64,000 bases of DNA from Halarcobacter sp. (GTDB lineage Bacteria > Campylobacterota > Campylobacteria > Campylobacterales > Arcobacteraceae): positions 160,001 through 224,000 of the forward strand of contig CP182352.1 in the NCBI GenBank assembly GCA_048571215.1. Reading direction: 5' to 3'. Shown here piece after piece: positions 28,405 to 60,669 of the stretch. Position numbers and translations under genes: made by a program. Below the pieces are notes generated by a model. The model ran no database searches. It was not told the DNA's origin and was given only the letters and a program-made list of their open reading frames with translations. Every line of letters starts with the position of its first letter. The stretch's first letter is position 1.

Positions 28405-29136
28405 TTATCTTAGAGATACTAGCTTTCTTCTTAAATAAGCTATTTTATTTTGTAGTGGTAAATGTTTTGGACAGTGGTCTTCGCATGCCATTAATGACAT
28501 ACAACCAAAGATACCATCATCATCACCAATTAATTCATAATAATCTTCTGCAGATCTGTTATCATGTGGATCTACTTCAAATCTTGCAACTCTATTTAAT
28601 CCAACAGGACCAACAAAATCAGGTCTCATTAGCATAGTACCACAAGATGCAACACAAATACCACACTCAATACATCTATCAAGTTCAAATGTATCATTTG
28701 CTACATCTGGATCAATTCTCTCTTCAAGTTTAGTGATATCATGTTTTTCATTTGTATGAATCCATGATTCAACTCTTTTAGACATTTTATCCATCCATTT
28801 ACCAGTATTAACAGATAAATCTTTGATTAATTCAAATGCTGGCATTGGAAGAAGAGTGATTACCCCATCAGGATAGTTTGCAACAAGTGTTCTACAAGCT
28901 AGGGCTGGTTTACCATTTACAACCATACCACAAGAACCACAAATTCCTGCTCTACATACAAAATCAAAAGATAAATCAGGGTCAATATGCTCTCTAATTT
29001 GTGTTAATGCAATAAAAAGAGTCATCCCTGGAGTTTCTTCAAGTTTATACTCTACATAGTGAGGTTTAGAAACCGCACTTCTTGGATTGAATTTAAGTAC
29101 TTTAATTGTAACTTCTCTACCTTTTGCTGTACTCAT
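28405..29136 (-). CDS. frdB: Fumarate reductase iron-sulfur subunit
   Basis: 'CRAGICGSC', '[11 protein letters not shown]', '[12 protein letters not shown]'. Confidence 0.96.
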
Positions 29137-31121
29137 TACTTATCTCCTACTCTTTCATTTTTATCTTTATAGTTCATTGGTAAATCAAATGGCATAAGTG
29201 CATCTTGAATCTCATGTCTATCTTTACCTTCAGCTTGCATTTTTTCAGTAATTTCATCAACTTCTGCTTGTCTTTTTGCTGAAAGCTCATTTTCTATAAT
29301 CATACCCTTAGCACCATATCCTCTAAATGCAGGAGGCATCTCCATTTTCATAATATCTAATGGTTCATATGTGATTTCAGGTTCTATTGCATCTTTTGAT
29401 GGCCAAGATGTTAATGTTCTATTTAACCAATTTGCATCATCTCTTTTTAGATAATCTTCTCTATAGTGTGCCCCTCTTGACTCAGTTCTATCTCTTGCAC
29501 CTTTAGCAACACATAATGCAACTTTTAACATTTTTGGAACTCTATATGCATCTTCTAGTTCTGGGTTTCCAGCTCTTTCTTTAGATTTTACATTGATTTG
29601 TTTAGTTTTTTGTAATAACTCTTTTAACTCTTCAACTGCTTCAGCTAAGTGTGGACCATCTCTAAAGATACCAACTTTATCATCCATAAGTTGTTTCATT
29701 CTATTTTTGATTTTATAGATATCTTCACTTCCATTATAAGATAATATCTCTTCTAAATAAGCATTTTGCTCATCTAAGAATTTTTGAACAGTTTTAGTAG
29801 GAATCGTTACATCATTTTCTAAACAAAAATCAGCAAAATAGTTACCAATAATCATACCAGCAACAACTGTTTCAGAAACTGAGTTTCCTCCAAGTCTATT
29901 AAATCCATGCATATCCCAACAAGCAGCTTCACCACAAGCGAAAAGTCCAGATAAGTTTTGAGATTCACCTGTTGGTTTAGTTCTAATTCCACCCATTGAG
30001 TAGTGTTGCATAGGAAGTACTGGAGCCCAACCTTTTGGACCTTCATCAGCAGGATCAATACCATTAAAGATTTCACAAATCTCTTGTACATCTCTTAGGT
30101 TTCTTTCGATGTGCTCTCTACCTAAAATAGAGATATCTAACCATACATGGAAACCATAAGGAGAAGGTACACCTTTACCATTTCTAATATGTTCAATCAT
30201 TCTTCTAGAAACAACGTCTCTTGAAGCAAGCTCTTTTTTCTCAGGTTCATAATCTGGCATAAATCTATGTCCATCAACATCTCTTAAGATACCACCATCA
30301 CCTCTACAACCTTCAGTTAATAAAATACCTGATGGTACAATTGGAGTTGGGTGAAATTGAACAGCTTCCATATTTCCTAAAGTTGCAATTCCAGTTTCAA
30401 GAACAATACCTTGACCTGTACCTTCACAAATAACTGCATTTGTAGTTTGTTTAAATACTCTTCCATAACCACCAGTAGCAATACATGTTCCTTTTGCTAC
30501 ATATGCTTCTAATTCACCAGTAATTAAATCTCTTACAATAGCACCATAACATCTTTTATCTTCATGGATAAGTGATAATGCTTCTTTTCTATCTCTAATA
30601 TCAACATCATGTTTTAAAGCTTCATTTGCAACACCAAATAACATTGTATGTCCTGTTGCATCCGCTGTATAACATGTTCTCCATTTTTTTGTACCACCAA
30701 AATCTCTTGATGTGATTAGACCATGTCTATCTTCATCTTCAGTAATAGTTGTTTTTTTAGCATTGATAACAGCTTCTCTTGTACCAGCTTTTACTCTAGA
30801 CCAAGGCACACCCCAACCTGCTAATTCTCTAATAGCTTTTGGCGCAGTATGTACGAACATTCTTGCAACATCTTGGTCACATCCCCAGTCAGAACCCTTT
30901 ACAGTATCTGCAAAGTGTAAATCTTCATTATCACCATCTGACATTTTAGAGTTACCTAAAGATGCTTGCATACCACCTTGTGCAGCAGCACTATGAGATC
31001 TCTTAACAGGAACTAAAGATAATACAACTGTACTTAAACCTTTTTTTTGTGCAGCAACAGCAGCTCTTAAACCTGCTAATCCTCCACCAATAACTAATGC
31101 ATCACAGTAATTAATTTTCAT
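29136..31121 (-). CDS. frdA: Fumarate reductase flavoprotein subunit
   Basis: 'GGGLAG', '[10 protein letters not shown]', 'QFHPT', 'HYSMGG', '[10 protein letters not shown]'. Confidence 0.97.
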
Positions 31122-31903
31122 TATTTAAGCCCCTTCATAATTGTTGATTCAACTTTTGCAATTGTTGGATTATATCTTTGTCCAACTTTGTCTGCATGAT
31201 CCATACCAATTTTCATATAAGCTGCAAGTGTTGCAAAACCTAAAATTAAGAAGAACCATGTTAATGCTTTTTTATAAGTTTTAAGTTTTTTTCTAGTTGC
31301 TTTAGGATCACTTCCATCAAACCATCCCCATTTAACTGCAAGTCTATATAACCCAATTGTACCATGGAACTCAACAGCTAATAGTAAAAGGATGTATAAA
31401 GGCCACATCCACTCTGACCAAACTCTATCAGAACTTGCATATGGACCAATTGCATCTGAATGTGTCATTATAATATATATATGTACTGAACCTAAGAAGA
31501 ACATTGCAAAACCAGTAAACGCTTGGATAAACCACAGTTTTGTATCCTCGTGTCCCATATTATTTGCATGTGCTTTCATAACTTGATATTGTTTAAAGTT
31601 ACTTGGTAATTTTCTCATTCCCATAGCAGCATGTACAATAAAAATTACAAAAACAACAAATGCAATTATAGATACTAATAATGGATTTCCTCCATCAAAA
31701 ATAAAACTACCTTCGAAAAATTTTGTAACAGAGTACATGAAATCCTTACTAATTAAAATTGAAGACACCATAAACATATGTCCCCACATAAAAAGAGCTA
31801 GAAATAATCCAGTCGCACTTTGAATATAGTCAAGCTTTGCTGGAACTCTACTCTTTTTTCTCTCTACAGTCTTCCCTAAATAACCTTCTATTAGGTCACT
31901 CAT
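31121..31903 (-). CDS. frdC: Fumarate reductase cytochrome b subunit
   Basis: Start MSDLIEG after AAAGGA; 5 TM with haem His residues; Wolinella-type '[12 protein letters not shown]'. Confidence 0.94.
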
Positions 31904-32036
31904 TTGACATCCTTTCCTGTGAATTTGATTTTGTGATATTAATAGCATAATAATAGCTTAATAGTGCTTAATATCCCAAGAAGTAGTTATGTATAAGTTA
32001 TGTACAAATATTGTACAAAATAATATTTAGACAATA

Positions 32037-32128: not shown

Positions 32129-33634
32129 TTATTTTATAAATAGCGATTGTATAGCTGTTTGTGTTAAGTCTATAAGTGTATCAATATTTAATACAGGTAT
32201 AAAGAATACTATTGCACTACCAATACCTCCAACAACTGTAACTATTGCTAAAAATCCAATAGCATAAGTTGAGATTCTTTTATCATTAAAATCATTACTT
32301 ACACACTCATCTTTTGTAGGATAAAAATACATCATTGCGATAAGTTTGAAGTAATAATATACAGATACAAAAGTTGCAATAATTGCTAATACTGCAAGTG
32401 GTGCAAATCCAGCATTTATAGCTTCAGTAAATACATAAAATTTACCGATAAAACCAATAGTTGAAGGGATACCAGCTAGTGAAAATAAGAAAATAGTCAT
32501 CATAGCAGCTAAAAATGGTCTCTCTTTTGCTAAACCTTTAAAGTCATCATATGTAACTCTAACTTTTGTCTCAGAGATAATATGTGAGATGATACCAAAT
32601 GAACCAAGTGCAGATAATAAATATGCAATAAGATAAAATACAGTTGCATATGCTGCATCAATATTTTGACCAATGGCTATAAATGCTAATAGTAAATAAC
32701 CTGTATGAACAATTGAAGATGCTGCTAACATTCTTTTTACAATTTTTTGTGTTATTGCTAACCAAGTACCAAATACTAATGTTAAGATAATGATTACATA
32801 AATAATTGAATCCCAGAAATTTATCATAGAACCCATATCTTGTAAAATTGCTCTTAAGAAGAATGAAAAAATCGCAATTTTAAAAGTAGATGCCATATAT
32901 GCAGTGATGATCATAGGAGCACCTCTATACACATCTAGAACCCAAGATTGGAATGGGAAGGCTGCAACTTTGAATAGGAACGTAAATAAAATAAGTGATA
33001 ATCCTATATATATAAGTGCTAAATCTCCATTATTATGAGTAGAAATAAAGTTTGCAATCTCTGTTAAATTAGTACTTTGTGCCGCTCCATAAACTAGTAC
33101 AACACCTAATAGATAAAAAGCACCAATAAATGAACCTAAAACTAAATATTTGAAAATAGCCTCAACCCTTTTTGAGTCATCAGTGTTGTACCCAACCATA
33201 ATATAAACTGAAAAAGATGCAATCTCTAAAGCAATATATGCAGTAACTAAATCGTTTGAGTTAGCTAATAACATCATCCCAAATAAAGCAAACAATAAAA
33301 TTGAGAAAAACTCACCTTTAAAGTATGATCTAGATTGAAAATAGTTTTCACCAATTAATAATGTAAGTAAAGTACCACCAATTAATAGTACATTGAAAAA
33401 GTTTGAAAAAGTATCAAATATCAAAACATTATTAAAAACTGAATTGTATGGTTTAACCGAATACAACTCACCAAATGGAATAAAAGTTAAGATAAGTGCT
33501 AATATTAAAACAACAGATGAAACTATAATGTATTGTTTAGTATTAAATTTATTTTCAAACATACTCATAAACATTAAAGCAACAGCCGCTATTAAAACTA
33601 TTGATACAGGTAATATATGTATTAAGTTACTCAT
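32129..33634 (-). CDS. nuoN: NADH-quinone oxidoreductase subunit N
   Basis: '[10 protein letters not shown]', '[11 protein letters not shown]', 'SLAGIP...GFIGKF'. Confidence 0.93.
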
Positions 33635-35112
33635 TTTGTTGCTCCAATATGTAAAATGTCATTTAAGTAGTGTGTAACAGTTGGTTCAAATTTATCTATG
33701 AAGATATCTGGATAGATACCCATTAAAAATACTAAGAAAACCCATGGTGCTAAACCAATAATCTCTTTGATTTTTAAATCTCTAAATTTTAAATCTGAAC
33801 CCTCTCTATTTTGCAAAATTGCCCTTTGAAACATCCATAACATATATGAGGCACCAATTATTACAGTAAGAGCTGAGATATAACCTAAAGTGTGATTAAA
33901 CTCATAGATACCAAAGATAATTAGTAATTCTGAAACAAAACCATTTGTTCCAGGAAGTCCCACATTTGCAAATAACATAATTGCAAAAATTGTTGTAAAT
34001 ATTGGAGCTTGTTTTGCTAACCCACCTAAGTCTTTAATTGTTTTAAATCCAGTCTCTTCATGAATCAATCCAACAAGTAAGAATAATGCACCTGTTGCAA
34101 TTGCATGGGCAATGATTAAGTATAATGCCCCATTTACACCAAAAGCATTTAGTGAAAAAATACCAGCAGCAATAAAACTTAAGTGTGATGCTGAAGAGTA
34201 TGCAAACATTCTTTTAATATCATCTTGCATAAGTGCTGCAATACCAAAGTAAACAAGTCCAAATAAACCAATAAATACAAACCAGCTTGAGAATTCAACA
34301 TAAATCTCAGGGAAGATTGGAATTAAAAATCTTACAACTGCATAAACTCCAAGTTTTGCCATAATAGATGATAATAAAAATACTGCACCAGTAGGAGCAT
34401 TTTTATATGTTTCCATAATCCAAGTGTGTAATGGGAACATTGGAATCTTAATAGCAAATGCAGAAAGAAAAGCTAAAAATAACCAAATTTGTTCAGTATA
34501 GCTTAGTGTTGTGATTTGTGTAAGTTTATCGTATTGGAATGCCCATTGACCAAACTCATTATGATAAGCAACACCTAAATAGATAATTGCTACAAACATA
34601 AGTAAAGAACCAAGCATAGTATAAACAGTAACTTTAATAGTTGTAAATACCTTGTCTCCAAATCCATAAATACCTATCATTAAGAAAACAGGTAAAAGCA
34701 TAACTTCCCAGAAAAAGTAAAAAAGAACAACATCAAGAGCTAAAAGTGAACCAGTAACACCAGTTTGAACTAATAGCATGTTTATCCAATATCCTTTTGT
34801 TCTACCTTCCCAAAGTAGAAGATATGCTGTTGGAATTAAAATAGCAATCATCATTAGAATTGTTAATGAGAAACCATCAACACCAATATAGTAATTAATA
34901 CCATAAGACTCAATCCAAGGAACATTAGTAACAAACTGCATTCCGGCACTTGGCTCAAAATCGATGTAGATTTTAAGAACAAGTGCTAATATTACAGTAG
35001 TAGTTAGAAATGCTATATTTCTAACTGTTTCTATATGTTTTGTAGTTATCATTAAACCAAAGGCAACAACCGCTGGTAAAAAGATAATAAATGATAAAAT
35101 ATCTGCACTCAT
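33631..35112 (-). CDS. nuoM: NADH-quinone oxidoreductase subunit M
   Basis: '[11 protein letters not shown]', '[12 protein letters not shown]', '[11 protein letters not shown]'. Confidence 0.94.
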
Positions 35113-35113
35113 C

Positions 35114-37003
35114 TTATAATCCTAAAGAAATATATAAATATATAAAAACACAACTCATACCAATAAGCATAAAGGCCGCGTAAAATCTTACATTTGCATT
35201 TTGTATCATTGCAACTTTTTTACCAAAAGAAACAAACTCATTACAAACACCCATTATAAATCCATCAATAATCTTAGTATCAACTACTTTGTCAATAAAA
35301 GTAGAGATTTTTTTAGAAAATTGAACAAAAATTATGTCATAGAACTCATCAACATAGAATTTATTAGCAATAATCCCTTTTTCATCTTCAGGTTTATAAA
35401 CATCAAAGTTGGCATATTTTTTATAAGCTACAACAATTCCTGCAACTGCTACAACAATAGATAATATCATCAGAATATATTCTGTTGCATGTGACATATG
35501 AATATGTGTAGAGTTAGTTTGTGCTAACCATGTATCAACTAAATGTTCACCTCCAAATATTGCTGGTAAGTTAAGAAAACCTGCTCCAACTGCTCCAACT
35601 GCTAATATAACAAGTGGGAAAGTGATAGTTTTTGATGTATAAACATATTGTTTTGTATGTTTATTTGGCGCTACAAATAAAATAAAATACATTCTAAACA
35701 TATAAAATGCTGTTAAAAATGCTGTAAACATTCCAATTGCCCAGATTAGGTATTGACCCTCTTGGAAAGCTGCTGCTAAAATAGCATCTTTTGAAAAGAA
35801 TCCAGAAAATGGAGGGATACCAGAAATTGCAATAACACCAATTAAGAATGTAATTCCAATAATTGGAAGTTGCACTCTATGTTGTGCCATTTTAAAAATA
35901 TTTTGTTCATGGTGTAAAGCTATAATCATACCACCAGCACCCATGAATAACATCGCTTTAAAAAATGCGTGAGTAAATACATGAAATAGTCCTGAACTAT
36001 AAAAACCTAAACCAACACCTATAAACATATATCCAAGTTGTGACATAGTTGAGTATGCAAGAATTTTTTTAATATCTTGTTGTCTTGTTGCAATTATTGC
36101 TGCAAATAGTGCTGAAAATGCACCAATATAAGCTATAAATGTACCAATCTCTTCAATTCCACTATATAAGAAGTGAAATCTTGCAACCATATAAACCCCA
36201 GCTGTTACCATTGTAGCTGCGTGGATAAGTGCTGAAATTGGAGTTGGTCCTGCCATTGCATCAGGAAGCCACACATATAATGGAATCTGTGCTGATTTAC
36301 CCATAGCTCCAACAAATAGTAGGAAACCTGATAATACTAATAATCCAGTTGGTGCATTATTTATATTTGCTTCAAGGGAAGTAAAGCTTAAGTCAACTTC
36401 TCCTAAAGCAAAGAATAGGGTGATAAGACCTAAAAGAAAACCAAAATCTCCAACTCTATTTGCAATAAAAGCTTTGTTACCAGCTATAACATTATCTTTA
36501 TCAGTATAATAAAAGGCAATTAGTAGGTATGAACAAACACCAACACCTTCCCAACCAATGAAAAGAATAATTGGATTATCTGCTAATACTAGGATTAACA
36601 TTGAAGCTAAGAATAGGTTAAAGTATGCAAAAAATTTACCAAACCCTTTATCTCCTGTCATATAACCAATAGCATAAATATGAATTAACCAACCAACAAA
36701 AGTTACAAACATTGACATGAAAATAGCTAGGTTATCACCTAAAAAGCCCATATTTACATTTAGTGTTCCAATATTTAGCCAAGTAAATAGTGTTTGTTTA
36801 TATGTAATACCACCATCAACCATGCCTAAAAAGATATTTAAAGTTATTAAAAAAGCTATTAAGGGTGTACCTGTACCAATTATAGAGAAAACCAATTCTG
36901 AAACAGGCTTTTTCTTAATGTGATAGAAGTAGATACCACCATTTAATATTGCACCAAGCAGTGGTGCTAATATTATCCAAACAAGAAGCGAAGTATCCAT
37001 CAT
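35114..37003 (-). CDS. nuoL: NADH-quinone oxidoreductase subunit L
   Basis: 'GKSAQIPLYVWLPDAMAGPTPISALIHAATMVTAG'. Confidence 0.96.
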   Translation of the reverse strand: MMDTSLLVWIILAPLLGAILNGGIYFYHIKKKPVSELVFSIIGTGTPLIAFLITLNIFLGMVDGGITYKQTLFTWLNIGTLNVNMGFLGDNLAIFMSMFVTFVGWLIHIYAIGYMTGDKGFGKFFAYFNLFLASMLILVLADNPIILFIGWEGVGVCSYLLIAFYYTDKDNVIAGNKAFIANRVGDFGFLLGLITLFFALGEVDLSFTSLEANINNAPTGLLVLSGFLLFVGAMGKSAQIPLYVWLPDAMAGPTPISALIHAATMVTAGVYMVARFHFLYSGIEEIGTFIAYIGAFSALFAAIIATRQQDIKKILAYSTMSQLGYMFIGVGLGFYSSGLFHVFTHAFFKAMLFMGAGGMIIALHHEQNIFKMAQHRVQLPIIGITFLIGVIAISGIPPFSGFFSKDAILAAAFQEGQYLIWAIGMFTAFLTAFYMFRMYFILFVAPNKHTKQYVYTSKTITFPLVILAVGAVGAGFLNLPAIFGGEHLVDTWLAQTNSTHIHMSHATEYILMILSIVVAVAGIVVAYKKYANFDVYKPEDEKGIIANKFYVDEFYDIIFVQFSKKISTFIDKVVDTKIIDGFIMGVCNEFVSFGKKVAMIQNANVRFYAAFMLIGMSCVFIYLYISLGL

Positions 37004-37314
37004 GATTTCTCTCCTTGAGTTAATGTAGTAAAGATATCTGTATCAAGTGATCTTTTTGATCTAAATAATAATATGATTACTGATAAAAATATTGCAGCTT
37101 CAGCAGCAGCAATTGAAATTACCATAATAGTGATAATTTGAGGATCCATATTGAAGTGATATCTTGCAAATGTTATTAGAAATAGATTTACTCCATTTAA
37201 CATAAGTTCGATTGACATATAGATTACAAAGATATTTCTTCTTGCAATTACACCTATAACTCCGATTGAAAAAAGAATCATAGAAACAAAAGCATATGAT
37301 GTTAAACTAATCAT
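37000..37314 (-). CDS. nuoK: NADH-quinone oxidoreductase subunit K
   Basis: 'RRN...SIELMLNG', 'AAAEAA'. Confidence 0.94.
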   Translation of the reverse strand: MISLTSYAFVSMILFSIGVIGVIARRNIFVIYMSIELMLNGVNLFLITFARYHFNMDPQIITIMVISIAAAEAAIFLSVIILLFRSKRSLDTDIFTTLTQGEKS

Positions 37315-37826
37315 GCGTCTTCCTTATTCATTTTTTTTCTTCTTGCTAATACAATTGAACCTACAAGTGCAATTAGTAGTAAAATTGAGATTAACTCAAA
37401 TGATATAATCCAATCGTTGTATAATAATTTACCGATAGGTTTAATATCTCCAAAAGAACTCTCTACAAGTTTCATATCTGCATCAGGTAGATTTGAAATA
37501 GCTTTTAAAATTACAATATTAAAAGGGATCATAACTACTACACCTAAAGCAATAAGTGAGAATTTTTTAGGCTCTTTTGGTAAATGTTCATCTTTAATAT
37601 TTAAGAACATTAGTAAAAATAGAATAAGTGTCATAATAGCACCTGCATATACTATTATTTGAACCATAAATAAAAATGTTGCATTAAGTAGTGCAAAAAG
37701 TCCTGCAACTGACATAATAGAAATCAACAAGCCAAGAGCAGAGTACATTGGACTTCTATAAACTAACATTGCTACACCACCAGCAATTGCAAAAAAACTA
37801 AGTGCTAGAAAAATTAAATTACTCAT
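37311..37826 (-). CDS. nuoJ: NADH-quinone oxidoreductase subunit J
   Basis: 'QIIVYAGAIM', 'FELISILLL'. Start MSNLIF follows AAGGA. Confidence 0.93.
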   Translation of the reverse strand: MSNLIFLALSFFAIAGGVAMLVYRSPMYSALGLLISIMSVAGLFALLNATFLFMVQIIVYAGAIMTLILFLLMFLNIKDEHLPKEPKKFSLIALGVVVMIPFNIVILKAISNLPDADMKLVESSFGDIKPIGKLLYNDWIISFELISILLLIALVGSIVLARRKKMNKEDA

Positions 37827-38325
37827 TATCAAAATCCTTTGAACGCTCATAAGACATAAGTTGTTTTTTATCTACTACGAAATCTTCTCTTTTACTAGCA
37901 GTGAAACTAAAAATTCCTGTATCCATTCTAATAGCATCACATGGACAAGCTTCAACACAATATCCACAAAATACACACTCTAATAAATCGATTTTAAACT
38001 CTTTAGGTCTTTTTTCTGCTACTCCATCGAATCTCTCTTGGGCATCAATAAAGATACATTGAGCTGGACATGCAGTTGCACACATATAACATGCCACACA
38101 TTTTTCACTACCATCATCCCATTTTGTTAACCTATGTACACCTCTATATCTATCTGTGATATCTGTTGGTTGAACCTCAGGATATTGTTGCGTTTTTAAC
38201 TTCGATACATCACCTAAATTTTCTTTAAAGTGTGTAAACGTAGTTTTCATTCCCCCTATAATTGCTGGAATGTATAATCTATCTTTTAATGACTTTCCAT
38301 GTCTTGGTACAATTTTAATTCCCAT
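37819..38325 (-). CDS. nuoI: NADH-quinone oxidoreductase subunit I
   Basis: Two CxxCxxCxxxCP motifs; 'QYPE', 'YRGVH'. Confidence 0.95.
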   Translation of the reverse strand: MGIKIVPRHGKSLKDRLYIPAIIGGMKTTFTHFKENLGDVSKLKTQQYPEVQPTDITDRYRGVHRLTKWDDGSEKCVACYMCATACPAQCIFIDAQERFDGVAEKRPKEFKIDLLECVFCGYCVEACPCDAIRMDTGIFSFTASKREDFVVDKKQLMSYERSKDFDNE

Positions 38326-38326
38326 A

Positions 38327-39610
38327 TTAACTTCCTGACACTACTACAAAAATAGCAGTTATTACAATATTTAGTATTGATAAAGGTATTAATACTTTCC
38401 AACCTAACATTTGAAGTTGGTCATATCTAAATCTTAATAGTGTCCATCTAATCCAAATGAATACAAAATTCATAAAGAAGAATTTAGCGATGAATGTTCC
38501 TATTTGGATTACAGCAGTTGCAATATTTACACCATTTGAACCAAGTCCTGTTATTAAGAACAAGATTAAAATAGCCATTACTACAGCAGTAATTCCCCAG
38601 AAAGCTTTTATTAAGATATTTTTTTCTCTATCTCTTTTGTCGTTAGCATCTAGCCAGTTATAGTTTTTGTTCATCCATTTATTTAAAAAGAATGCCTTGA
38701 TTGGTAAGATAATTATAATTGCTAGAATAACATAGTTGATATTACTTTGAATTGTTTGTGTATCCAACCAAGGGATTTGATAACCACCTAAAAATAGTGT
38801 AACTATAATAGCTGACGAAGCACTCATTGCCGCATATTCACCAACTTGGAAAAGACCAAATCTCATAGCTGAATACTCTGTATGATACCCAGCAACAATC
38901 TCTGATTCACCCTCTGCTATATCAAATGGTGTTCTATTTGTTTCAGCAAAAGCAGTAACTACAAAAATTAATGCTGCAAGTGGTTGCATAAAAATACCCC
39001 AAGCTGGAATAAATCCAAAAAATACTCCACTTTGGGCTTGAACCATTTCACTAAGATTAATTGTCCCATATGTTAATAAAACAGAGATAACAGATAATGA
39101 CATAGCTGCTTCATAAGAGATAACTTGTGCTGATGCTCTAATCCCACCTAAAAGTCCATATTTGTTTTCAGATGAATAACCACCTAAAATAATACCAAAT
39201 ACAGACAAACCTGCAAATGCTAAAAACCACATAATTCCAAGGGTTGTTGGAATTGCTTGCATCATAAAACTTTCCCCATCTATTACCAATGTATCAGAAA
39301 AAGGAATAACTGCCATTGTCATAAATGAACAGAAAAAAACTATTGCAGGAGCAATTGTATATAGAAACTTTTCTTTAATATGTGCTGGAGTAAAATCCTC
39401 TTTAAACACAAGTTTTAACATATCTGCGATTGCTTGAATTAGACCACCTAATCTAATCCCAGCAATATCTGCTCTGTTAGGACCAGTTCTATCTTGCATA
39501 AGACCTGCAACCCTTCTTTCCCACCAAACCATAATTGGAGTTGTTCCAACCGATAAGATTTTAGCAAGAAGAATATTTACAATAATTACTACTATTGAAA
39601 CCGTACTCAT
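38327..39610 (-). CDS. nuoH: NADH-quinone oxidoreductase subunit H (long form)
   Basis: 'ERRVAG..QDRTGPN', 'AETNRTPFD.AEGESE', 'RFRYDQL'. Confidence 0.95.
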   Translation of the reverse strand: MSTVSIVVIIVNILLAKILSVGTTPIMVWWERRVAGLMQDRTGPNRADIAGIRLGGLIQAIADMLKLVFKEDFTPAHIKEKFLYTIAPAIVFFCSFMTMAVIPFSDTLVIDGESFMMQAIPTTLGIMWFLAFAGLSVFGIILGGYSSENKYGLLGGIRASAQVISYEAAMSLSVISVLLTYGTINLSEMVQAQSGVFFGFIPAWGIFMQPLAALIFVVTAFAETNRTPFDIAEGESEIVAGYHTEYSAMRFGLFQVGEYAAMSASSAIIVTLFLGGYQIPWLDTQTIQSNINYVILAIIIILPIKAFFLNKWMNKNYNWLDANDKRDREKNILIKAFWGITAVVMAILILFLITGLGSNGVNIATAVIQIGTFIAKFFFMNFVFIWIRWTLLRFRYDQLQMLGWKVLIPLSILNIVITAIFVVVSGS

Positions 39611-41043
39611 AGACTACCTTTTTCTATCATAGATTTGATATACTCAATTATTGAAGTGATTGACTCCATTGGTTTATCTTTTCTAATTTTTGAAATAACT
39701 TTTTGTTTAATACCTTCAAAGTTGATATATGTTCCACTTTTTTCATAAAATGAAGCAGTTGGAATTACAATATCAGACTTAGTAAGTGTTTCACAATTGT
39801 GAGAGAAACAACTTACAACTTTTTTACCATCTAAAAGTTTTAGATTGTTATCAAAATAGTTGTTACCTAAAATAACAACTGCAGATGCAGCTTTTAATGA
39901 TGAATTAAAATGCTCTTCATCTTCACTAATCTCTAACTCTTTAAATGCAGCTCTATTAGCTGATTTGTCAGATTTTCTTAAATAATCATCTCCAAAACTT
40001 TCATCAAATGAATGTGGAGCATATCCTGTTATATCTGCTTTAATTATTGATGCTAAATTTTTAACATTTTGCATCTCTTCAAGTGAAAGACTCGGGTCTA
40101 ATACAAATAAAATTTTACTTTCAGTTGTTAAAATTTTAAAAGTGTTAGTAATAGCATTATCGAAGTTACTTTCTTCATTTCCAATTTTCGCTTCTAAAAC
40201 TCTATTTTCAGCTTCATTCTTATAAGATAATCTTCCCTCATCACATATAAACCAACCATTAACCGCTTTGTTAACTCTTGGTCTAAATCTAAAGATTTGA
40301 TCATCTTTGTATTTTTCTTTTCTATGGTCCACTTTGATATTACATCCTCTTGCACAACCACTACAGATTGCATCAAAAGATTCCATAAACCAAACTCTTT
40401 GTTTAAATCTAAAATCTTGTGAGGTTAAAGCTCCAACAGGACATAGATCAACAACATTCATAGCATATGGATTATCTAAAGGACGTCCAGGAAAAGTTCC
40501 AATTACAGAATGGTCTGCTCTATTAATAACACCTAACTCATTTGTTTTGGTTATATCAGAACAGAATCTTACACATCTTATACAAAGAACACATCTTTCT
40601 TGGTCAAGCATAACATTGCTTCCAAGTTCAATTCTTTTTCTAGCTGTAACCTTATTGTCTACTTGTACTCTAGAATCATAAAATCCTGATTCCATATAGT
40701 AGTCTTGAAGTTTACATTCTCCAGCTTGATCACATGTAGGGCAGTCAATTGGGTGATTGATTAGTTCTAATTCAAGAATATCTCGTCTAACTTTTTCAAT
40801 ATTCTCACCCTTTGTTCTTACAATCATACCCTCTTTAATAGGAGTATCACACGCAATTTGTGGTCTTTTTTGTCCTTCGATTTCAACCATACACATTCTG
40901 CAGTTACCATCTTTACCTAAGGCTTGGTGATAGCAAAAATGGGGAATATGAATATCTCTGTCTATTAGGGCGTCTATTAAAAGACTCCCTTTCTCTGCAT
41001 CTATTTCTTCCCCATTAACTGATAGTTTAACAAGTTCACTCAT
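39607..41043 (-). CDS. nuoG: NADH-quinone oxidoreductase subunit G (short form)
   Basis: 'PHFCYH...GNCRMC', 'HPIDCPTCDQAGEC', 'CVLCIRCVRFC...CPVGAL', 'CSGCARGC...CDEGR'. Confidence 0.9.
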   Translation of the reverse strand: MSELVKLSVNGEEIDAEKGSLLIDALIDRDIHIPHFCYHQALGKDGNCRMCMVEIEGQKRPQIACDTPIKEGMIVRTKGENIEKVRRDILELELINHPIDCPTCDQAGECKLQDYYMESGFYDSRVQVDNKVTARKRIELGSNVMLDQERCVLCIRCVRFCSDITKTNELGVINRADHSVIGTFPGRPLDNPYAMNVVDLCPVGALTSQDFRFKQRVWFMESFDAICSGCARGCNIKVDHRKEKYKDDQIFRFRPRVNKAVNGWFICDEGRLSYKNEAENRVLEAKIGNEESNFDNAITNTFKILTTESKILFVLDPSLSLEEMQNVKNLASIIKADITGYAPHSFDESFGDDYLRKSDKSANRAAFKELEISEDEEHFNSSLKAASAVVILGNNYFDNNLKLLDGKKVVSCFSHNCETLTKSDIVIPTASFYEKSGTYINFEGIKQKVISKIRKDKPMESITSIIEYIKSMIEKGSL

Positions 41044-41078: not shown

Positions 41079-42365
41079 TTATTTACCTGTGTATAATTGT
41101 CTTGGTCTAGCAATTCTAGCTGTTGAGTCTTGTTTTAATTCTGACCACTGTGTGATCCATCCAACAGTTCTACCAATAACAAAAACTGGTGTAAACATCT
41201 CTACAGGAATTTTAAGAGCTGTTAAAATAACACCTGAATAGAAGTCAATATTTGGATATAAACCTCTTTGTTTGAAATAATCATCTTTTAATGCTGCTTC
41301 TTCTACAGCTGCAGCAACATCTAATAATCTAGAGTCAAGATTTAACTCTTCTCTTAATTTATCTTGTAAACCTTTTAGCGTTTCAGCTCTTGGGTCTCTG
41401 TTTTTATAAACTCTGTGACCAAATCCCATTAATCTAAATGGATCATTTTTATCTTTTGCTTTTGCAATATAAGTTGGTACATTTTTAACATCACCAATTA
41501 ATTTTAATTGATCCATAACTTTTTCATTTGCACCACCGTGAGCTGATCCCCATAATGCAGCAATACCAGAAGCAATTGCAACATAAGGGTGTGCTTCTGT
41601 TGAACCTACATTTCTAACAGTTGTTGTAGAAGCATTTTGTTCATGATCTGCATGAAGAGTAAAAATCGCATCTAAAGCATCAACTTCAACTTGTCTAATA
41701 TCATCATTATGACCATTACCTAGGTATTTCATTTTTCCACCTGGATATGCTCTTAACATATATAAGAAGTTTTCAGTAAAGTATCTATTTACATCTGGAT
41801 AGATTTGTGGAACGCCAATTGAATTTCTATAAGCCATTGCAGCAATAGTTGGTATTTTTGCAACTATTCTTCTTCTCATTTCTTTAAATTGATCTTCATC
41901 TTCTAAATGTAAGTGATCCTTATAAAAAGTTGATAAAGCCATAGTAGCTGCACCAAGTGTTGCCATTGGGTGAGCATGATCTGGAAATGCATCAAAGATT
42001 CTTGTTAAACCCTCATGTACAAAAGATCTATGTCTAATTTCTAAATCAAAACCTCTTGATTCTTCAGGACTAGGAAGTCTACCTCTCATTAATAAATAAC
42101 ATACATCTAGATAAGATTTTTTACCCGCAAGTTCTTGTATTGGGTATCCTCTATATCTTAATTCCGAATTTTCTCCATCAATAAATGTGATTTTTGAATC
42201 ACAAGCTGCAGTTGATGTATAACCTGGGTCATATGTAAACATACCAGAATCTTTATAGAAACTTCTAATATCTACTACATCTGGTCCTCTTGTACCACTT
42301 ATGATATTATACTCATATGCTTTGCCATCTCTGTTATCCGTTAATGTAAATGTATTCTTTCCCAT
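41079..42365 (-). CDS. gltA: Citrate synthase (type II-like)
   Basis: 'YDPGYTSTA', 'HADHEQNAST', 'HGGANE', 'GFGHRVYK', 'PNIDFYSG'. Confidence 0.97.
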   Translation of the reverse strand: MGKNTFTLTDNRDGKAYEYNIISGTRGPDVVDIRSFYKDSGMFTYDPGYTSTAACDSKITFIDGENSELRYRGYPIQELAGKKSYLDVCYLLMRGRLPSPEESRGFDLEIRHRSFVHEGLTRIFDAFPDHAHPMATLGAATMALSTFYKDHLHLEDEDQFKEMRRRIVAKIPTIAAMAYRNSIGVPQIYPDVNRYFTENFLYMLRAYPGGKMKYLGNGHNDDIRQVEVDALDAIFTLHADHEQNASTTTVRNVGSTEAHPYVAIASGIAALWGSAHGGANEKVMDQLKLIGDVKNVPTYIAKAKDKNDPFRLMGFGHRVYKNRDPRAETLKGLQDKLREELNLDSRLLDVAAAVEEAALKDDYFKQRGLYPNIDFYSGVILTALKIPVEMFTPVFVIGRTVGWITQWSELKQDSTARIARPRQLYTGK

Positions 42366-42386: not shown

Positions 42387-43646
42387 TTATTTACTAAAAT
42401 GCGTTTCAAATTCATGTCTATATTTTTGCACGATACTTTTTATAATATCTTTTACAGCAGGTGCAAATACACAAACAGTTTTACCATTCATTGTTTCACA
42501 AACATCTAATATAGTTTGGATATCATCACTTGAACCTTCACCGTCTAGAATCTTCTTGATGATTTTATCAATCCATCCAGTTCCCTCTCTACACGGTGTA
42601 CACTGCCCACAAGATTCATGGTGATAAAACTCTATTAGGTTTTTTGCTACATCAACCATTGATACGCCTTCAGGGATAATCATCATCCCACCAGTACCTA
42701 AAGTAGAACCTATATCCCACATAGATTCATAATCTAGATATGCCTTTTCAACTTCTTCCGCAGTTAAAATAGGACACGAAGCCCCACCTGGAATAACAGC
42801 TTTAAGTTTTAAGCCCTCTTTCATCCCACCACCAATATCGTTGATAACATCAGTCATCTTTTCACCATATTGTAACTCATAAACTCCAGGATTTTTAACT
42901 GGTCCACTCATCGCAAATAGCATAGTTCCAGGAGCCTTTTCTGTACCATATTTAGTATATGATTCATATCCATTTAATACAATATTTGGAACAGATGAAA
43001 TAGTTTCAACATTATTAACTGTTGCTGGTTGGTCATAAAACCACTCACACTCTTTTCCATGTGGTTTTAATCTTGGGTGTCCACGTTTACCTTCAATAGA
43101 TTCAATAAGAGCAGATTTTTCTCCACAAATATAAGCTCCTCCTCCTCTATGTACTGTGATATCCATTCTAAAGTCATATTTATTCATAACTTTTGGACCA
43201 ATTATTCCAGCTTCATATGCTTCTTCAATAGCCTCATTTAATCTATCGATGAACCATTTGTATTCACCTCTAATATAAATATATGCATCATGGGCACCAA
43301 TTGCATATGAAGAGCATATAATTCCTTCAATAAGGATATGTGGATCATATTGAAAAATTTGTCTATCTTTAAATGTTCCTGGTTCTGATTCATCCCCATT
43401 TACAATTAAGTATCTAGGTCTATCATCAACTGGAGGCATAAGTTTCCATTTAGGTCCACAGGCAGCTCCACCACCACCTTTTCCTCTAAGACCACTTTTA
43501 CAAACCTCTTCAGTTACCTCTTCAGGTTTCATTGTAAAAAGTTTATCTATTGATTCATATCTTCCATTTTTAAGAGCAACTTCAAGTTTATGTGAATCGG
43601 GAATGTCAAAGTTTTTACTTACAATTTTTATTGGTTGAACAGACAT
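42387..43646 (-). CDS. nuoF: Complex I flavoprotein subunit F (divergent nucleotide-binding site)
   Basis: 'SGLRGKGG', 'NGDESEPGTFKDR', 'NNVET', N3 motif 'SCGQCTPCREG'. Confidence 0.93.
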   Translation of the reverse strand: MSVQPIKIVSKNFDIPDSHKLEVALKNGRYESIDKLFTMKPEEVTEEVCKSGLRGKGGGGAACGPKWKLMPPVDDRPRYLIVNGDESEPGTFKDRQIFQYDPHILIEGIICSSYAIGAHDAYIYIRGEYKWFIDRLNEAIEEAYEAGIIGPKVMNKYDFRMDITVHRGGGAYICGEKSALIESIEGKRGHPRLKPHGKECEWFYDQPATVNNVETISSVPNIVLNGYESYTKYGTEKAPGTMLFAMSGPVKNPGVYELQYGEKMTDVINDIGGGMKEGLKLKAVIPGGASCPILTAEEVEKAYLDYESMWDIGSTLGTGGMMIIPEGVSMVDVAKNLIEFYHHESCGQCTPCREGTGWIDKIIKKILDGEGSSDDIQTILDVCETMNGKTVCVFAPAVKDIIKSIVQKYRHEFETHFSK

Positions 43647-44122
43647 TACTTACACTCCTCAATGATTTTTTTTAACTTATCTACAGTTAAATTTTCATGA
43701 TATTTGTGGTTTAATGCAATCATTGGAGCGCCACCACAAGCACCTTGACACTCAACTTCACTTAGATGAAATTTACCATCTTCACTAGTTTCACCTGGGT
43801 TAATTCCTAAAGTATCTTTAATGAATTTTTTAAGTTCTGGTGCGCCCATTATCATACAAGATAGGGTTTTACATAACTCAATATGATATGTACCAATTGG
43901 TTTTAAGTTAAACATTGTATAAAATGTTGCAAACTCATAAACCTCAATTGGAGTTTTGTTAAGTCTATCTGCCACATAAATCATAGCATCTGGACTAACC
44001 CATCCCTCTTGCTCTTGAACTAGCCATAAAGCAGGAAGCATCATTGCATCAATTTTTGGATACTTTTTCGCTGTTTTTTGGAATTTTTCTTCGTTTTCTT
44101 TGGTATATTCAAATTTTGCCAT
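43646..44122 (-). CDS. nuoE: NADH-quinone oxidoreductase subunit E
   Basis: 'ATFYTMF', 'CKTLSC', 'ECQGAC'. Confidence 0.94.
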   Translation of the reverse strand: MAKFEYTKENEEKFQKTAKKYPKIDAMMLPALWLVQEQEGWVSPDAMIYVADRLNKTPIEVYEFATFYTMFNLKPIGTYHIELCKTLSCMIMGAPELKKFIKDTLGINPGETSEDGKFHLSEVECQGACGGAPMIALNHKYHENLTVDKLKKIIEECK

Positions 44123-45756
44123 TATCTATCAAACTCCCCTGCAATAAAGTTCATACTTGCCATTGTAACAACAGCATCTGCTAACATAATACCCTCTACA
44201 ATTTTTGCATAAGCACCTAAAGAGTAGAAACAAGGTGGTCTACATTTAACTTTGTATGGTGTACCACTTCCATCACTAACTGTATAAAAACCTAATTCCC
44301 CATTTCCACCTTCAGTTGCAGAATAAAATTCACCTTTTGGAACTTTAATACCTTCAAAAGTTAGTTTAAATTGGTTCATTAAACCTTCAATATTTCCATA
44401 TACATCTTTTTTATTTGGTAGTACAATTGCTGGATGGTCAACATTAATAGGACCATCTGGAAGCTCTTTCATTGCTTGTCTAATGATTTTCATAGATTGT
44501 CTCATCTCTTCAAATCTACACATTATTCTGTCATAAACATCACCATGTGAACCTACTACAATATCAAAATCAAAGTTTTCATAACCATAATATGGAGTAT
44601 CTTTTCTTAAATCAAAAGGAACACCTGCAGCTCTTAAGTTAGGACCTGTAATACCTGCATCTAAAGCAAATTGTGAATCAATAACACCCACATCTTGAGT
44701 TCTATCGTGGAAAATTCTATTATGCTCAACAAGTGACAATGAGTCTTCAATAGCTTTTTCAACATCTTTTAACACATCTTCTAAATCTTCAGCAAAGCCA
44801 TCATAAAGATCAAACTCTAAACCACCAATTCTTGTATAAGAGTTTGTAAGTCTAGCTCCTGTTAGTTTTGAAAATAAATCGTAAGCCTTATCTCTTGGTG
44901 CAAAGATGTACCAGAAGTTAGTTAAACCACCAAGGTCAACCATGTTTGCTGCATTACAAACAATATGGTCAGTGATTCTACTTAACTCTCCAATGATTAT
45001 TCTAATCATTTTTGCTCTAGGTGTAATATCAATCTCTAACATATCTTCAATAGCTTTTGCATAACCAATATTATTTAATATAGCTGAACAATAATTTAAT
45101 CTATCTGTATATGGAATGATTTGTGAGTAGGTATGGTTTTCACAAGATTTTTCAAAACCTCTGTGTAGGTATCCAATCTCTGTTACACATGCAGTGATAG
45201 TTTCACCTTCCATTGCAACAAAGTTTCTAATAGTACCATGTGAAGCTGGGTGAGAAGGACCAACATTAAGCATCATTAAATCTTCTAAATCACTTTCTTT
45301 GTAACCTTTAGATTTAAGTAATGGAATCATCTCATCCATTAAATCTTCAGTTTCTGTACATCTTTGACCTTTTGTTATCTCATAATCTTTTCTTAATGGA
45401 TGTCCTACAAATTGGTGATGATTTAAAACTCTTTTTAGATTTTTATGCCCTTTAAATCTAATACCGTACTGGTCAAATACTTCTCTTTCTCCCCAATCTG
45501 CTGCATGGTATAAATCAGAGATTGTATCAACTTCTAAAGTATTGTCATCAACATAAGCTTTAACCGTAGTATGCTTTTTGAAGTTACTAGTTCTTAAGAT
45601 ATAAATAACTGCAAATCTAGATGGAGTAACATCTGGAAATGTTGAATAATCAACAGCAGTTACATCTAATAAAATTGTGAAATCTTCATCATTTTTAAGT
45701 CGAGTAATTGTTGATTTAATATCTTTTGCATCAATTAACATATCTGGTTTAAGCAT
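44122..45756 (-). CDS. nuoCD: Fused NADH-quinone oxidoreductase subunit C/D
   Basis: C part '[12 protein letters not shown]', 'GHPLRKDY'; D part '[11 protein letters not shown]', 'GYLHRGFEK', ends 'GEFDR'. Confidence 0.95.
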
Positions 45757-46264
45757 CTAAAAATCCTTTGAACTTTCTTTCTCTTTCTTTTATGATTGAT
45801 TCATCATAAGATTTTTCTTGGATTCTCATAATTGCATCTAGTACTGCTTCAGGTCTTGGGGGACAACCTGCAACATACTCGTCTACTGGGATGATTTCGT
45901 CAATCCCTTGTAAAGTTGTGTAGTTATCATAAAAACCACCAGAACATGCACATGCTCCCATAGAGATGACCCATTTAGGTTCACACATTTGATCCCAAAT
46001 TTTCTTTAATACAGGAGCTTGTTTATATGAAATAGTTCCTGCAACAATTAGTAAGTCCGCTTGTCTTGGGGAAAATCTTACTACCTCTGCTCCAAATCTT
46101 GATATATCATAACGAGCTGCTGCAACTGACATAAACTCAATACCACAACATGCAGTACCAAATGCCATTGGCCACATTGAGTATGATCTAGCCCAGTTAA
46201 TAGCTGTATCAAGTTTTGTTGTAACTATAGAGTCACCTAGGTTTGACTCTGCTCCTAATCCCAT
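45749..46264 (-). CDS. nuoB: NADH-quinone oxidoreductase subunit B
   Basis: 'GTACCGIE', 'SPRQADL', 'GCPPRPE'. Confidence 0.96.
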
Positions 46265-46617
46265 GATAACGCCTTTTTCTTATACATATATATTAAGCCT
46301 GAAAAAAGAAGACCTATAAAGATAAACATCTTTATTAGACCTGCGAAGCCAAGTTCTGTAATATTGATTGCCCAAGGAAACATAAAAATGATTTCTACAT
46401 CAAATAGTAAGAAACCTATAGCTACTAAATAAAATTTTACAGAGAATCTGATGTTTGTATTTCCAATTGGATTTGATACACCACTCTCATAAACTGTGTT
46501 TTTTAACTTGTCTTCAGTATTATTTGGTCCAAGATACTTTGTTAATAAGAATACTCCTATTAACACAAAAGCAATTGCGACAAATATTACTGACGAAAGA
46601 ATTAGATGTGTTGACAT
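46255..46617 (-). CDS. nuoA: NADH-quinone oxidoreductase subunit A
   Basis: 'YESG', '[14 protein letters not shown]', 'ALSW'. Confidence 0.95.
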
Positions 46618-54649: not shown

Positions 54650-54708
54650 TAAAAAAGATGAAAAGAGTGATAAAATTTAAAATTTAAGCCTATATTAAGA
54701 GTAAACCC

Positions 54709-54737
54709 TTGACAAGAGGAAAAAAATCTATTATAAT
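54709..54737 (+). promoter_or_regulatory. rRNA operon sigma70 promoter
   Basis: TTGACA-17 nt-TATAAT, followed by a GC-rich discriminator TCCCGTCC; boxA-like GATCTTTAACAA at 54801. Confidence 0.9.
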
Positions 54738-54832
54738 TCCCGTCCAATTTCAGAGGAACGACATCAAAAGTAAATGATGAGAGAGCCTAGGGGATAGGAT
54801 GATCTTTAACAATAAAAGGTTTGTAAAGAAGT

Positions 54833-56642
<1,810 letters not shown>

Positions 56643-56663
56643 TTTAAAAAATAGGTGACAAAT

Positions 56664-56740
56664 GGGCCTATAGCTCAGCTGGCTAGAGCGCTCGACTGAT
56701 AATCGTGAGGTCCCAGGTTCAAGTCCTGGTAGGCCCACCA
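56664..56740 (+). tRNA. tRNA-Ile (GAT)
   Basis: GGGCCTA acceptor stem, CT-GAT-AA anticodon loop, GGTTCAAGT, CCA end. Confidence 0.98.
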
Positions 56741-56770
56741 TTATTAAATAATCTGTAAAGATTTAGTTGT

Positions 56771-56846
56771 GGGGATATAGCTCAGCTGGGAGAGCGCCTG
56801 CCTTGCACGCAGGAGGTCAGCGGTTCGATCCCGCTTATCTCCACCA
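56771..56846 (+). tRNA. tRNA-Ala (TGC)
   Basis: GGGGATA acceptor stem with G3-U70, CT-TGC-AC anticodon loop, GGTTCGATC, CCA end. Confidence 0.98.
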
Positions 56847-57237
56847 TCTATTATAAATCTGGGTTTAAAATGAAAATTTAAAATTTAAAAATGAAATTTT
56901 TTTATCTTTGAATAATCATAATGTAAAACTAAATATAAGTCTTAAAGAATTAAGATTTATATTTGGTTTTTTAAAAACCAAAATGCTTTCAGACATTATT
57001 CTGAAAATGATATTTAAAAATTTAATGTTAAAGTCTTTAATTTTTTCGTTTAATTAAATTTCGTATGAATTTAATTAAAAAATAAAAATTTAATATCAAA
57101 TTAACTTGAAAGAATTCAATTTTTTTAAGATAATAATGATAGACACAACTGTTTTGTTGAATATGTATGTATTCAATAAGATAGTAGCCAAGGAATAATT
57201 ATTCAAAAAGGTGAAGTAATGAAAATTACTTTGTCAA

Positions 57238-60122
<2,885 letters not shown>

Positions 60123-60262
60123 ATTAATATTTCTTGGTTTACTATCTTATTGAGTACACTCAATAAAGTAAATATTGTGTTTAAAGACTTTTAACATTAA
60201 CATTTTAACTCATTCAATGTGAGTACAAAGCAAACTTTTTAAGTTTGTTTGATACTCATATT

Positions 60263-60377
60263 GCTGGTGGTTATTGCGAGGTGGAAATACCCAGCCCCAT
60301 TCCGAACCTGGAAGTCAAGCACCTCTGCGCTGATAATACTGCAGGGTCCCCTTGTGGAAACGTAAGCCGCTGCCAGC
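60263..60377 (+). rRNA. rrf: 5S rRNA
   Basis: GCTGGTGG...CCCATTCCGAAC...CTGCCAGC with complementary ends. Confidence 0.96.
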
Positions 60378-60394
60378 TCTTGAGTATTCTATTT

Positions 60395-60446
60395 AGCTTC
60401 TGTCTAATCTATCCTTCCCGATAGCTTTGACAGAAGCTTTTTTTTT
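60395..60446 (+). terminator. rRNA operon terminator
   Basis: AGCTTCTGTC...GACAGAAGCT followed by a long T-run. Confidence 0.75.
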
Positions 60447-60669
60447 ATCCTTTTTTATATTTAATCACTTTTATTTGCCAATCTCTTTCTTATCTCTTTG
60501 CTTAAAGCCTCTTTTTTTAATGAAAAAGCAACTATTTTATAAAAGTTGTAAGAAATATAGATATAAAGGGTGAGTAAAATAGTAAGGTAGTTATATTATA
60601 ATATATAGTAAGTTTATTTTTAAGAAAAATAAACCACCACTAGATGGTGATTTATCTAAATGTATTTAA

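Follow-up and report, generated by a model that had tools for sequence, protein, structure and literature searches.

A remodelled adenosine pocket in the NuoF of a Campylobacterales clade, a candidate NADPH-accepting complex I

Which electron donor does the complex I encoded at this locus accept? In NuoF-type complex I, specificity for NADH is taken as fixed, and we know of no use of NADPH by complex I outside engineered variants. The DNA analysed here, a stretch of 64,000 nucleotides that we call the window (Halarcobacter sp., Arcobacteraceae; assembly GCA_048571215.1, contig CP182352.1, positions 160,001 to 224,000 of the forward strand), contains a nuoF gene. According to an earlier note made from the letters of the window, its product carries a lysine at the NADH-selecting glutamate and lacks adenine-stacking aromatics, and the complex might naturally oxidise NADPH.

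The nuo operon and the pocket of its NuoF

The gene belongs to an operon ordered nuoA-B-CD-E-F-gltA-G-H-I-J-K-L-M-N, in which intergenic gaps range from -32 to 35 bases (window coordinates):

46255..46617, minus strand, nuoA, first gene of the operon
45749..46264, minus strand, nuoB
44122..45756, minus strand, nuoCD fusion, 544 aa
43646..44122, minus strand, nuoE, 158 aa, N1a ligands intact
42387..43646, minus strand, nuoF, 419 aa, FMN/N3 subunit with an altered adenosine pocket (alignments, profile match, AF2 model)
41079..42365, minus strand, gltA, type I citrate synthase between nuoF and nuoG, gaps of 21 and 35 bp
39607..41043, minus strand, nuoG, short (478 aa), N1b/N4/N5 ligands and an N7-like motif
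38327..39610, minus strand, nuoH
37819..38325, minus strand, nuoI, two 4Fe-4S motifs
37311..37850, minus strand, nuoJ, named from position and sequence
37000..37314, minus strand, nuoK, named from position and sequence
35114..37003, minus strand, nuoL
33631..35112, minus strand, nuoM
32129..33634, minus strand, nuoN, last gene of the operon

On the plus strand of 42387..43646 the reading frame is closed. The Fe-S ligands in NuoE, NuoG, NuoI and NuoB are intact, those of N1a, N1b, N4, N5, N6a/b and N2 being present. The 478 aa of NuoG compare with a mean of 493 aa in clade C complex I, and NuoCD is fused here, a state almost confined to clade E; both clade descriptions come from the available passages of Spero 2015 (PMC4453560). 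A metatranscriptome (one oligo-dT run, contigs only, in which DNA may be present) covers nuoF and its Lys codon with 5 differences, all silent.

In 67 of the 73 loci showing both nuoF and nuoG, the gltA gene lies between them; the insertion is missing from several Sulfurovum-labelled and distant loci. Other arrangements of the operon occur. In one family (f23; loci L113, L114, L127, L128 and L131) it falls into two convergently oriented parts, nuoABCDEF and nuo(H)IJKLMN, with a CRP/FNR-like gene of 214-218 aa between them in 4/5 loci and nuoG beyond the stretches covered. Four loci (L115, L116, L122, L129) have no nuoG or membrane-arm genes after the Lys-bearing nuoF within the stretch covered, and in L122 this gene stands without recognised nuo neighbours. 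As for the rest of the window, frdCAB-like genes (28405-31948) lie on the same strand 180 bases past nuoN; a TRAP substrate-binding gene forms an exact 1068-base duplication (10512-11579 and 12944-14011) flanking an aminotransferase gene; an aldehyde dehydrogenase gene occurs in near-identical copies (5001-6392 and 18896-20287) with a 902-base exact stretch; and the region of about 54700-60500, devoid of long ORFs, resembles an rRNA operon on the basis of shadow ORFs alone.

The three motifs quoted in the earlier note and the Lys codon are all found in the minus-strand ORF of nuoF:

43446..43493, minus strand, Gly-rich loop GLRGKGGGGAACGPKW, residues 52-67 (alignment)
43377..43400, minus strand, NGDESEPG FMN/nicotinamide loop, intact, Glu88 corresponding to Nqo1 Glu97
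43107..43133, minus strand, YICGEKSAL, residues 172-180
43116..43118, minus strand, Lys177 codon AAA, at the site of Nqo1 Glu185 and E. coli NuoF Glu183
43041..43076, minus strand, remodelled loop PRLKPHGKECEW, residues 191-202
42582..42617, minus strand, N3 cluster motif with Cys346, 349 and 352; the fourth ligand, Cys392, lies within 42459-42479

HMMER alignments to solved structures set Lys177 on Glu185 of Thermus Nqo1 (2FUG) and on Glu183 of E. coli NuoF (7P61), gap-free nearby, which upholds the earlier placement of a lysine at the ribose-binding glutamate and rules out misalignment. The sites of Nqo1 Phe70, Phe78 and Phe205 are occupied by Ala61, Leu69 and Gly197. The Gly-rich loop carries two further replacements (Arg65 by Lys56, Ala68 by Gly59), and in the remodelled loop Pro-Phe205-Pro gives way to His196-Gly197-Lys198, followed by the new residues Glu199, Glu201 and Trp202. 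In the available passages of a review (PMC11677225), Phe70 and Phe205 form the adenine stack while Glu185 and a Lys make the ribose contacts. Both marks of the NADH-specific form, the glutamate (Glu185/Glu183) and the stacking pair Phe70 and Phe/Tyr205, are thus absent from this NuoF. Of the aromatic losses listed earlier, those of Phe70 and Phe205 stand; that of Phe78 carries little meaning because F occupies the site in just 62 of 150 representatives, and an aromatic residue, Trp202, has been gained.

The remainder of the site is conserved. Lys66 (K75), Glu88 (E97), Tyr172 (Y180), Glu176 (E184) and Lys194 (K202) are retained from Nqo1, as are the N3 cysteines 346/349/352/392, and alignment together with ligand inspection confirmed that the FMN and N3 motifs are intact, as had been noted. 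Contacts to the flavin, the nicotinamide and the pyrophosphate persist, as does the Fe-S chain, and His196 and Lys198 form a basic flank at the former Phe205. An AF2 model built from a 75-sequence alignment (pLDDT 94.6 overall; lowest, 71, over residues 191-200) superposes on Nqo1 (3I9V chain 1) with a TM of 0.94, so the 51-kDa flavoprotein fold is present. The profile NF010120 is matched with 436 bits, above its cut-off of 389, and TIGR01959 with 502.8, below its cut-off of 558.65. Compared with canonical NuoF/Nqo1 (E. coli, Thermus thermophilus, Paracoccus), the protein thus shares the fold, the FMN/N3 ligands, the equivalents of K75, E97, Y180 and K202 and a complete nuoA-N set, but differs by Lys for Glu185, Ala for Phe70, Gly with basic neighbours for Phe205, a new Glu-x-Glu-Trp and a gltA within the operon. 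The extra N- and C-terminal Fe-S domains of bifurcating BfuB/HydB (~600 aa) are absent, NuoF having 419 aa and the N3 ligands alone.

Distribution and conservation of the Lys-type pocket

The nearest named homologues belong to Halarcobacter and Arcobacter (up to 94% identity). Lys is fixed in the close homologues listed (120/120), and it is encoded by both AAA and AAG (the latter in 4 of 34 matches); a strain-specific mutation or a sequencing error is thereby ruled out. Genome contigs gave Lys in 74/75 loci of the clade (the remaining one holds a frameshifted fragment in which the site is not covered); five distant loci carry E, G, S, E and E. Lys was also found in 22/22 additional NuoF matches and in 20/20 distant Campylobacterales loci picked from matches at 52-69% identity. 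A DNA-pattern scan of metagenomes returned at least 120 stretches, and among those listed 119 share 54-94% identity with the query and show the clade's own loops wherever the loops are covered.

Among the best 150 50%-identity representatives, the site is Glu in 130 and Lys in none of the 148 scored (2 gaps). For the Phe70 site the counts are 143 F/Y and no Ala, for the Phe205 site 128 F/Y and no Gly; the Trp202 site is Gly in 147. In a FastTree phylogeny of 108 NuoF-family cores (70 of the 150 representatives entered the input, from which short matches were removed), the 31 Lys sequences form a single clade with a support of 1.0, nested among Glu-type NuoFs. In an unrelated member of the NuoF family (L386, 42% identity) this site is Lys too and Phe205 is likewise missing; its Lys is of probable independent origin.

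We pooled 334 distinct Lys-type sequences, a set chosen for Lys and gathered with a pattern that demanded Glu199: in this set Glu199 is present in at least 318/334, Glu/Asp201 in 317/318 and W/F/Y202 in 317/318, while position 61 is aromatic in 0/287. At least one basic residue occurs at positions 196-198 in 327/327 and at least two in 302. The individual residues His196, Gly197 and Lys198 vary (H/K/A/Q, G/Q/K/R and K/P/R, respectively) and were dropped as an exact signature, only the net basic charge being retained. A Cys63-Cys200 disulfide was likewise ruled out, each Cys varying independently of the other. Lys66, Glu88, Tyr172, Lys194 and the Gly loop are invariant in the clade, some of them being FMN contacts as well. 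Judged from these alignments, the Lys pocket is a fixed, selected and clade-wide rebuild across Campylobacterales, not a strain quirk. The NuoF of A. butzleri should have the Lys too, as we infer from its genus.

Nicotinamide specificity in related enzymes and in the rest of the genome

Loss of the glutamate has precedents. Wild-type FdsB of R. capsulatus has a kcat/Km of 29,708 min-1 mM-1 for NAD+ and no NADP+ activity; in the E259K variant the values are 68 (NADP+) vs 81 (NAD+) min-1 mM-1, and L279R likewise opens NADP+ use (PMC10671435). By residue spacing and the paper's own statement, FdsB E259-K276-L279 maps to Nqo1 E185-K202-F205. In E. coli NuoF, E183Q/H raised the affinity for NADPH (Morina 2011, as cited in PMC10671435). 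The engineered enzymes (E. coli NuoF E183Q/H, FdsB E259K/R and L279R) resemble the NuoF of the window in the removal of Glu, in one variant for Lys, and in a positive charge close to the Phe205 site. They are, however, single laboratory changes with weak dual activity, whereas the change here is natural, multi-residue and clade-wide, in a membrane complex I.

A natural case is HydB of Thermoanaerobacter kivui, which works on NADP+ (8A6T; available passages of PMC10021017). In our alignment its Glu and Phe205 sites hold Ser and Arg340, respectively, and the Phe70 equivalent is retained, while the NAD enzymes aligned alongside (A. woodii, T. maritima and A. mobile HydB) have Glu/Phe. Natural loss of Glu and a basic residue in the Phe205 region are thus common to HydB and the Lys-type NuoF, but HydB differs in its Ser and Arg340, its retained Phe70 and its extra ferredoxin domains, and it is soluble and no quinone reductase. 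Among 147 scored representatives (3 gapped rows left out), which are related and non-independent, His/Arg occupies the Phe205 site in 12/17 that lost Glu and in 1/130 that kept it. A rule that Ser/His means NADP is broken by A. mobile WorB (9MQX), which has Ser/His at the Glu/Phe205 sites and is described in the available passages of PMC12318220 as NAD-reducing, with a structure solved with NADH. The signature of NADP-type HydB/HoxF (small residue, Arg or His, Phe70 kept) is not that of our NuoF (Lys, Gly flanked by His/Lys, Ala61), whose pocket would be a solution analogous to, yet separate from, theirs.

Three further genes on a contig of the same genome (C1) bear on the question:

C1:1474284-1476062 (locus L152:4285-6063), minus strand, PDH E3 of an aceE-aceF-lpd cluster, close to E. 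coli Lpd
C1:2783007-2784626 (locus L081), plus strand, HoxF of a HoxEFUYH-like hydrogenase, gene names from sequence reading
C1:3429233-3430432 (locus L153), minus strand, NDH-2-like flavoprotein gene

In the E3, I-R-G-P replaces E205-M206-F207-D208 of E. coli Lpd. The changes E205V/M206R head the list behind an NADP-dependent PDH in a table of PMC5817062, and E205A/G alone lets NADP+ in according to the available passages of PMC8406311; a search of the literature on E203V/M204R came back empty. A match to E3 was present in 63/121 family genomes, 50 were retrieved and 49 could be scored: 39/49 have V/I-R and 10/49 E-M. In a FastTree phylogeny with a distant outgroup, the V/I-R sequences form a single clade (support 0.92) on a long stem inside E-M sequences, so that the E3 switch looks derived and, as far as such a tree orders the events, would be later than the Lys-NuoF. 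The genome's E3 is a candidate natural NADP-dependent PDH component. All 10 genomes with an E-M E3 also carry Lys-NuoF, and in other families, where 10 of 24 Lys-NuoF genomes have an E3-family match, Glu is found in 5/6 readable motifs. Because an NAD-type E3 co-occurs with it in these genomes, NADH appears to be made beside Lys-NuoF.

The other enzymes are mixed. HoxF, encoded in a HoxEFUYH-like operon (C1:2782520-2787310), carries Ala in place of the NAD-selecting Glu and His in that of Phe205; since 13/20 order paralogues share this pattern, Hox may be NADP-linked. The genome has two Complex1_51K genes only, nuoF and hoxF. In the NDH-2-like protein, Ser replaces the NADH-selecting Glu of three solved NDH-2s, as it does in 30/30 of its best matches. 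IDH is monomeric and identical to NADP monomeric IDHs over the K-H...R motif, which we take to be an NADP-type coenzyme motif. MDH retains the NAD Asp in two samples (6/6 and 2/2 loci), the predicted loss of this Asp not being seen in them, and SerA retains Asp too. The genome's two malate dehydrogenases (C1:645408-646346 and 1392516-1393457) both have Asp-Ile-Arg at the end of the coenzyme-selecting strand, and this Arg might allow NADP use. An Mqo-like protein and two TrxB-like genes, which we label FqrB-like, are also encoded. MDH, the Mqo-like and the FqrB-like proteins could be alternative outlets for reduced nicotinamides.

Transhydrogenase and Nqr/Rnf genes are almost missing, PntB being found in 1/121 family genomes and NqrB/RnfD in 0/121; a PntAB or Nqr/Rnf sink for NADH, predicted beside the NAD-type E3, was thus not seen in these 121 genomes. 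An epsilon-type complex I operon without NuoE/F is encoded at C1:3439512-3453535 (gene names from sequence reading), and epsilon-type NuoD occurs in 106/121 family genomes, yet in 2/11 of one genus (g2), where the NDH-2-like gene is found in 4/11 genomes. Three complete genomes of this genus (G009, G092 and G119) have Lys-NuoF, the I-R E3 and the NADP IDH motif; no epsilon-type NuoD was found in them, and neither NDH-2 nor SthA was among their 13 Pyr_redox_2 matches (E <= 1e-12), which are E3, thioredoxin reductase, TrxB-like and sulfide-dehydrogenase-like proteins. In these three genomes the Lys complex I is the sole recognisable NAD(P)H:quinone oxidoreductase, and both main producers look NADP-linked.

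Electron donor and direction of the Lys-type complex I

These observations lead us to favour, as the probable reading, that NuoF is the electron input of a complete, 14-subunit-type and proton-pumping complex I that accepts NADPH, in preference to NADH or along with it, and runs in the forward direction. The adenosine pocket would have been rebuilt once for NADPH, at the base of the Campylobacterales clade, with the 2'-phosphate bound by Lys177 together with Lys198/His196 and adenine stacking passed to Trp202 or His196. Hydride would go to FMN, and electrons via N3 to menaquinone, along the usual route of complex I. Catabolism would yield NADPH through the NADP-type IDH, the E3 with its NADP fingerprint and probably a flavodoxin-NADP reductase and, with no transhydrogenase detectable, this NADPH would be respired by the Lys complex I beside the second, flavodoxin-type complex. 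With several further enzymes of the cell showing a switch parallel to that of the pocket, NADPH may serve these bacteria as a respiratory fuel.

The proposal in the earlier note that Lys favours NADPH is borne out in part. FdsB E259K, T. kivui HydB and the NADP-type fingerprints of E3, HoxF, the NDH-2-like protein and IDH speak for it; against it, the engineered E-to-K change is weak and dual, NAD-type E3 stands beside Lys-NuoF in 10/49 and Glu199, Glu201 and Trp202 had been overlooked. The invariant Glu199 and Glu/Asp201 could neutralise Lys177, and the loss in Lys-NuoF of Phe70, which is kept in the NADP enzyme HydB, also weighs against our reading. The E-M E3s, the NAD-type MDH and SerA and the other outlets argue for dual use or for an exchange of charges no less than for strict NADPH use. 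A strictly NADPH-specific, proton-pumping complex I at the hub of NADPH-based respiratory catabolism in Arcobacteraceae is a tentative extension that we hold to be rather doubtful; it would bring together NADP-linked IDH, NADP-type Hox and NDH-2, the lack of transhydrogenase and a naturally NADP-dependent PDH complex, acquired as an NAD enzyme and later switched.

The exchange of charges just mentioned would leave NADH as the preferred donor: Lys177 would pair with one of the new acids, the other (Glu199 or Glu201) would bind the ribose, and Trp202 would replace Phe205. The near-invariance of Glu199, Glu/Asp201 and the aromatic residue at 202 in the pooled sequences (given that the pattern demanded Glu199) speaks for it, NAD-type E3s beside Lys-NuoF (10/49 and 5/6) fit it, WorB binds NADH without the Glu, and reviews and genome papers, in their available passages, name the complex NADH:quinone oxidoreductase, from annotation alone. 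We nevertheless consider it unlikely: it gives no account of the move of most family E3s to an NADP fingerprint on one long branch, it leaves G009, G092 and G119 without an explained NADPH reoxidation, loss of this Glu in FdsB lowered NAD+ efficiency >300-fold (PMC10671435), and His196/Lys198 bring extra positive charge.

The earlier note had also considered a non-nicotinamide donor. Here the adenosine pocket would be closed, and flavodoxin or ferredoxin reduced by POR/OOR would dock at a basic patch close to FMN, or a different non-NAD(P) donor would be used. Both adenine-stacking Phe are gone, unlike in the NADP enzyme HydB; several POR_N-family genes are present in the genome, and OOR is retained in A. 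butzleri according to a passage of the genome and review literature. In genus g2, moreover, where a flavodoxin-type complex occurs in 2/11 genomes, the Lys enzyme is otherwise the only complex I. This donor is nonetheless improbable, given the separate flavodoxin-type complex I in the genome. The dinucleotide-binding Lys66, Glu88, Tyr172, Lys194 and Gly loop are invariant (though some also bind FMN), and electrons from PDH and IDH would still require an NAD(P)H outlet. Reviews assign the epsilon-type complex to flavodoxin in their available passages, and a second flavodoxin enzyme would be redundant because 106/121 family genomes keep that complex. The epsilon-type (NuoXY) complex I of Campylobacter and Helicobacter belongs to the same order and is likewise no ordinary NADH enzyme, but it has nuoX/nuoY in place of NuoE/NuoF and is encoded here by a separate operon, whereas the Lys operon has true nuoE and nuoF.

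An NADP(H)-specific enzyme might also work mainly backwards, reducing NADP+ from menaquinol at the expense of the pmf and replacing transhydrogenase in lithotrophic or quinone-linked growth. The near-absence of PntB (1/121) would suit such a role, Hox is NADP-type by motif too, lithotrophy is widespread among the relatives, and the available passages of bioRxiv 717884 propose backward electron flow through complex I for Campylobacteria. A citrate synthase gene lies within the operon, however, and nuoA-N of A. butzleri is up with O2 and co-regulated with TCA genes (available passages of PMC11334517), all of which fits oxidative use; NADPH is, besides, already supplied by NADP-type IDH and E3, and we regard reverse flow as quite improbable. 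That the nucleotide site is degenerate and NuoF merely structural, as the sub-threshold TIGR01959 score might hint, is highly improbable, since every cofactor ligand is retained and drift does not produce a pocket whose derived residues are themselves invariant across 52-94% identity.

The complex itself is very likely not new to the literature. The 14-subunit complex I of Arcobacter is called canonical and NADH-linked in the available passages of PMC3144371, PMC6682613, PMC2147049 and PMC4584990, and nuoA-N of A. butzleri, assuming the same operon, is expressed, O2-dependent and CemR-controlled (available passages of PMC11334517). This complex (Moparthi and Hagerhall 2011; PMC6682613; PMC11334517) is very likely encoded by the same operon as ours, and the published passages available make no mention of an altered pocket or of NADPH. 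Nor was any remark on the Lys or on NADPH found among the papers listed from a mostly open-access literature on the complex I or NuoF of Arcobacter and Sulfurospirillum. The Lys-type NuoF is thus real, clade-wide and apparently unnoticed in print.

If the NADPH reading is true, this natural enzyme would reveal how such a pocket can be remodelled with full activity, where engineered single changes in FdsB lose >99% of efficiency, and would offer a template for NADPH-linked diaphorases. Metabolic models would change for Arcobacteraceae, Sulfurospirillum-like and related bacteria, in which the operon is annotated as NADH-linked, and the textbook division between NADH for respiration and NADPH for biosynthesis would be blurred.
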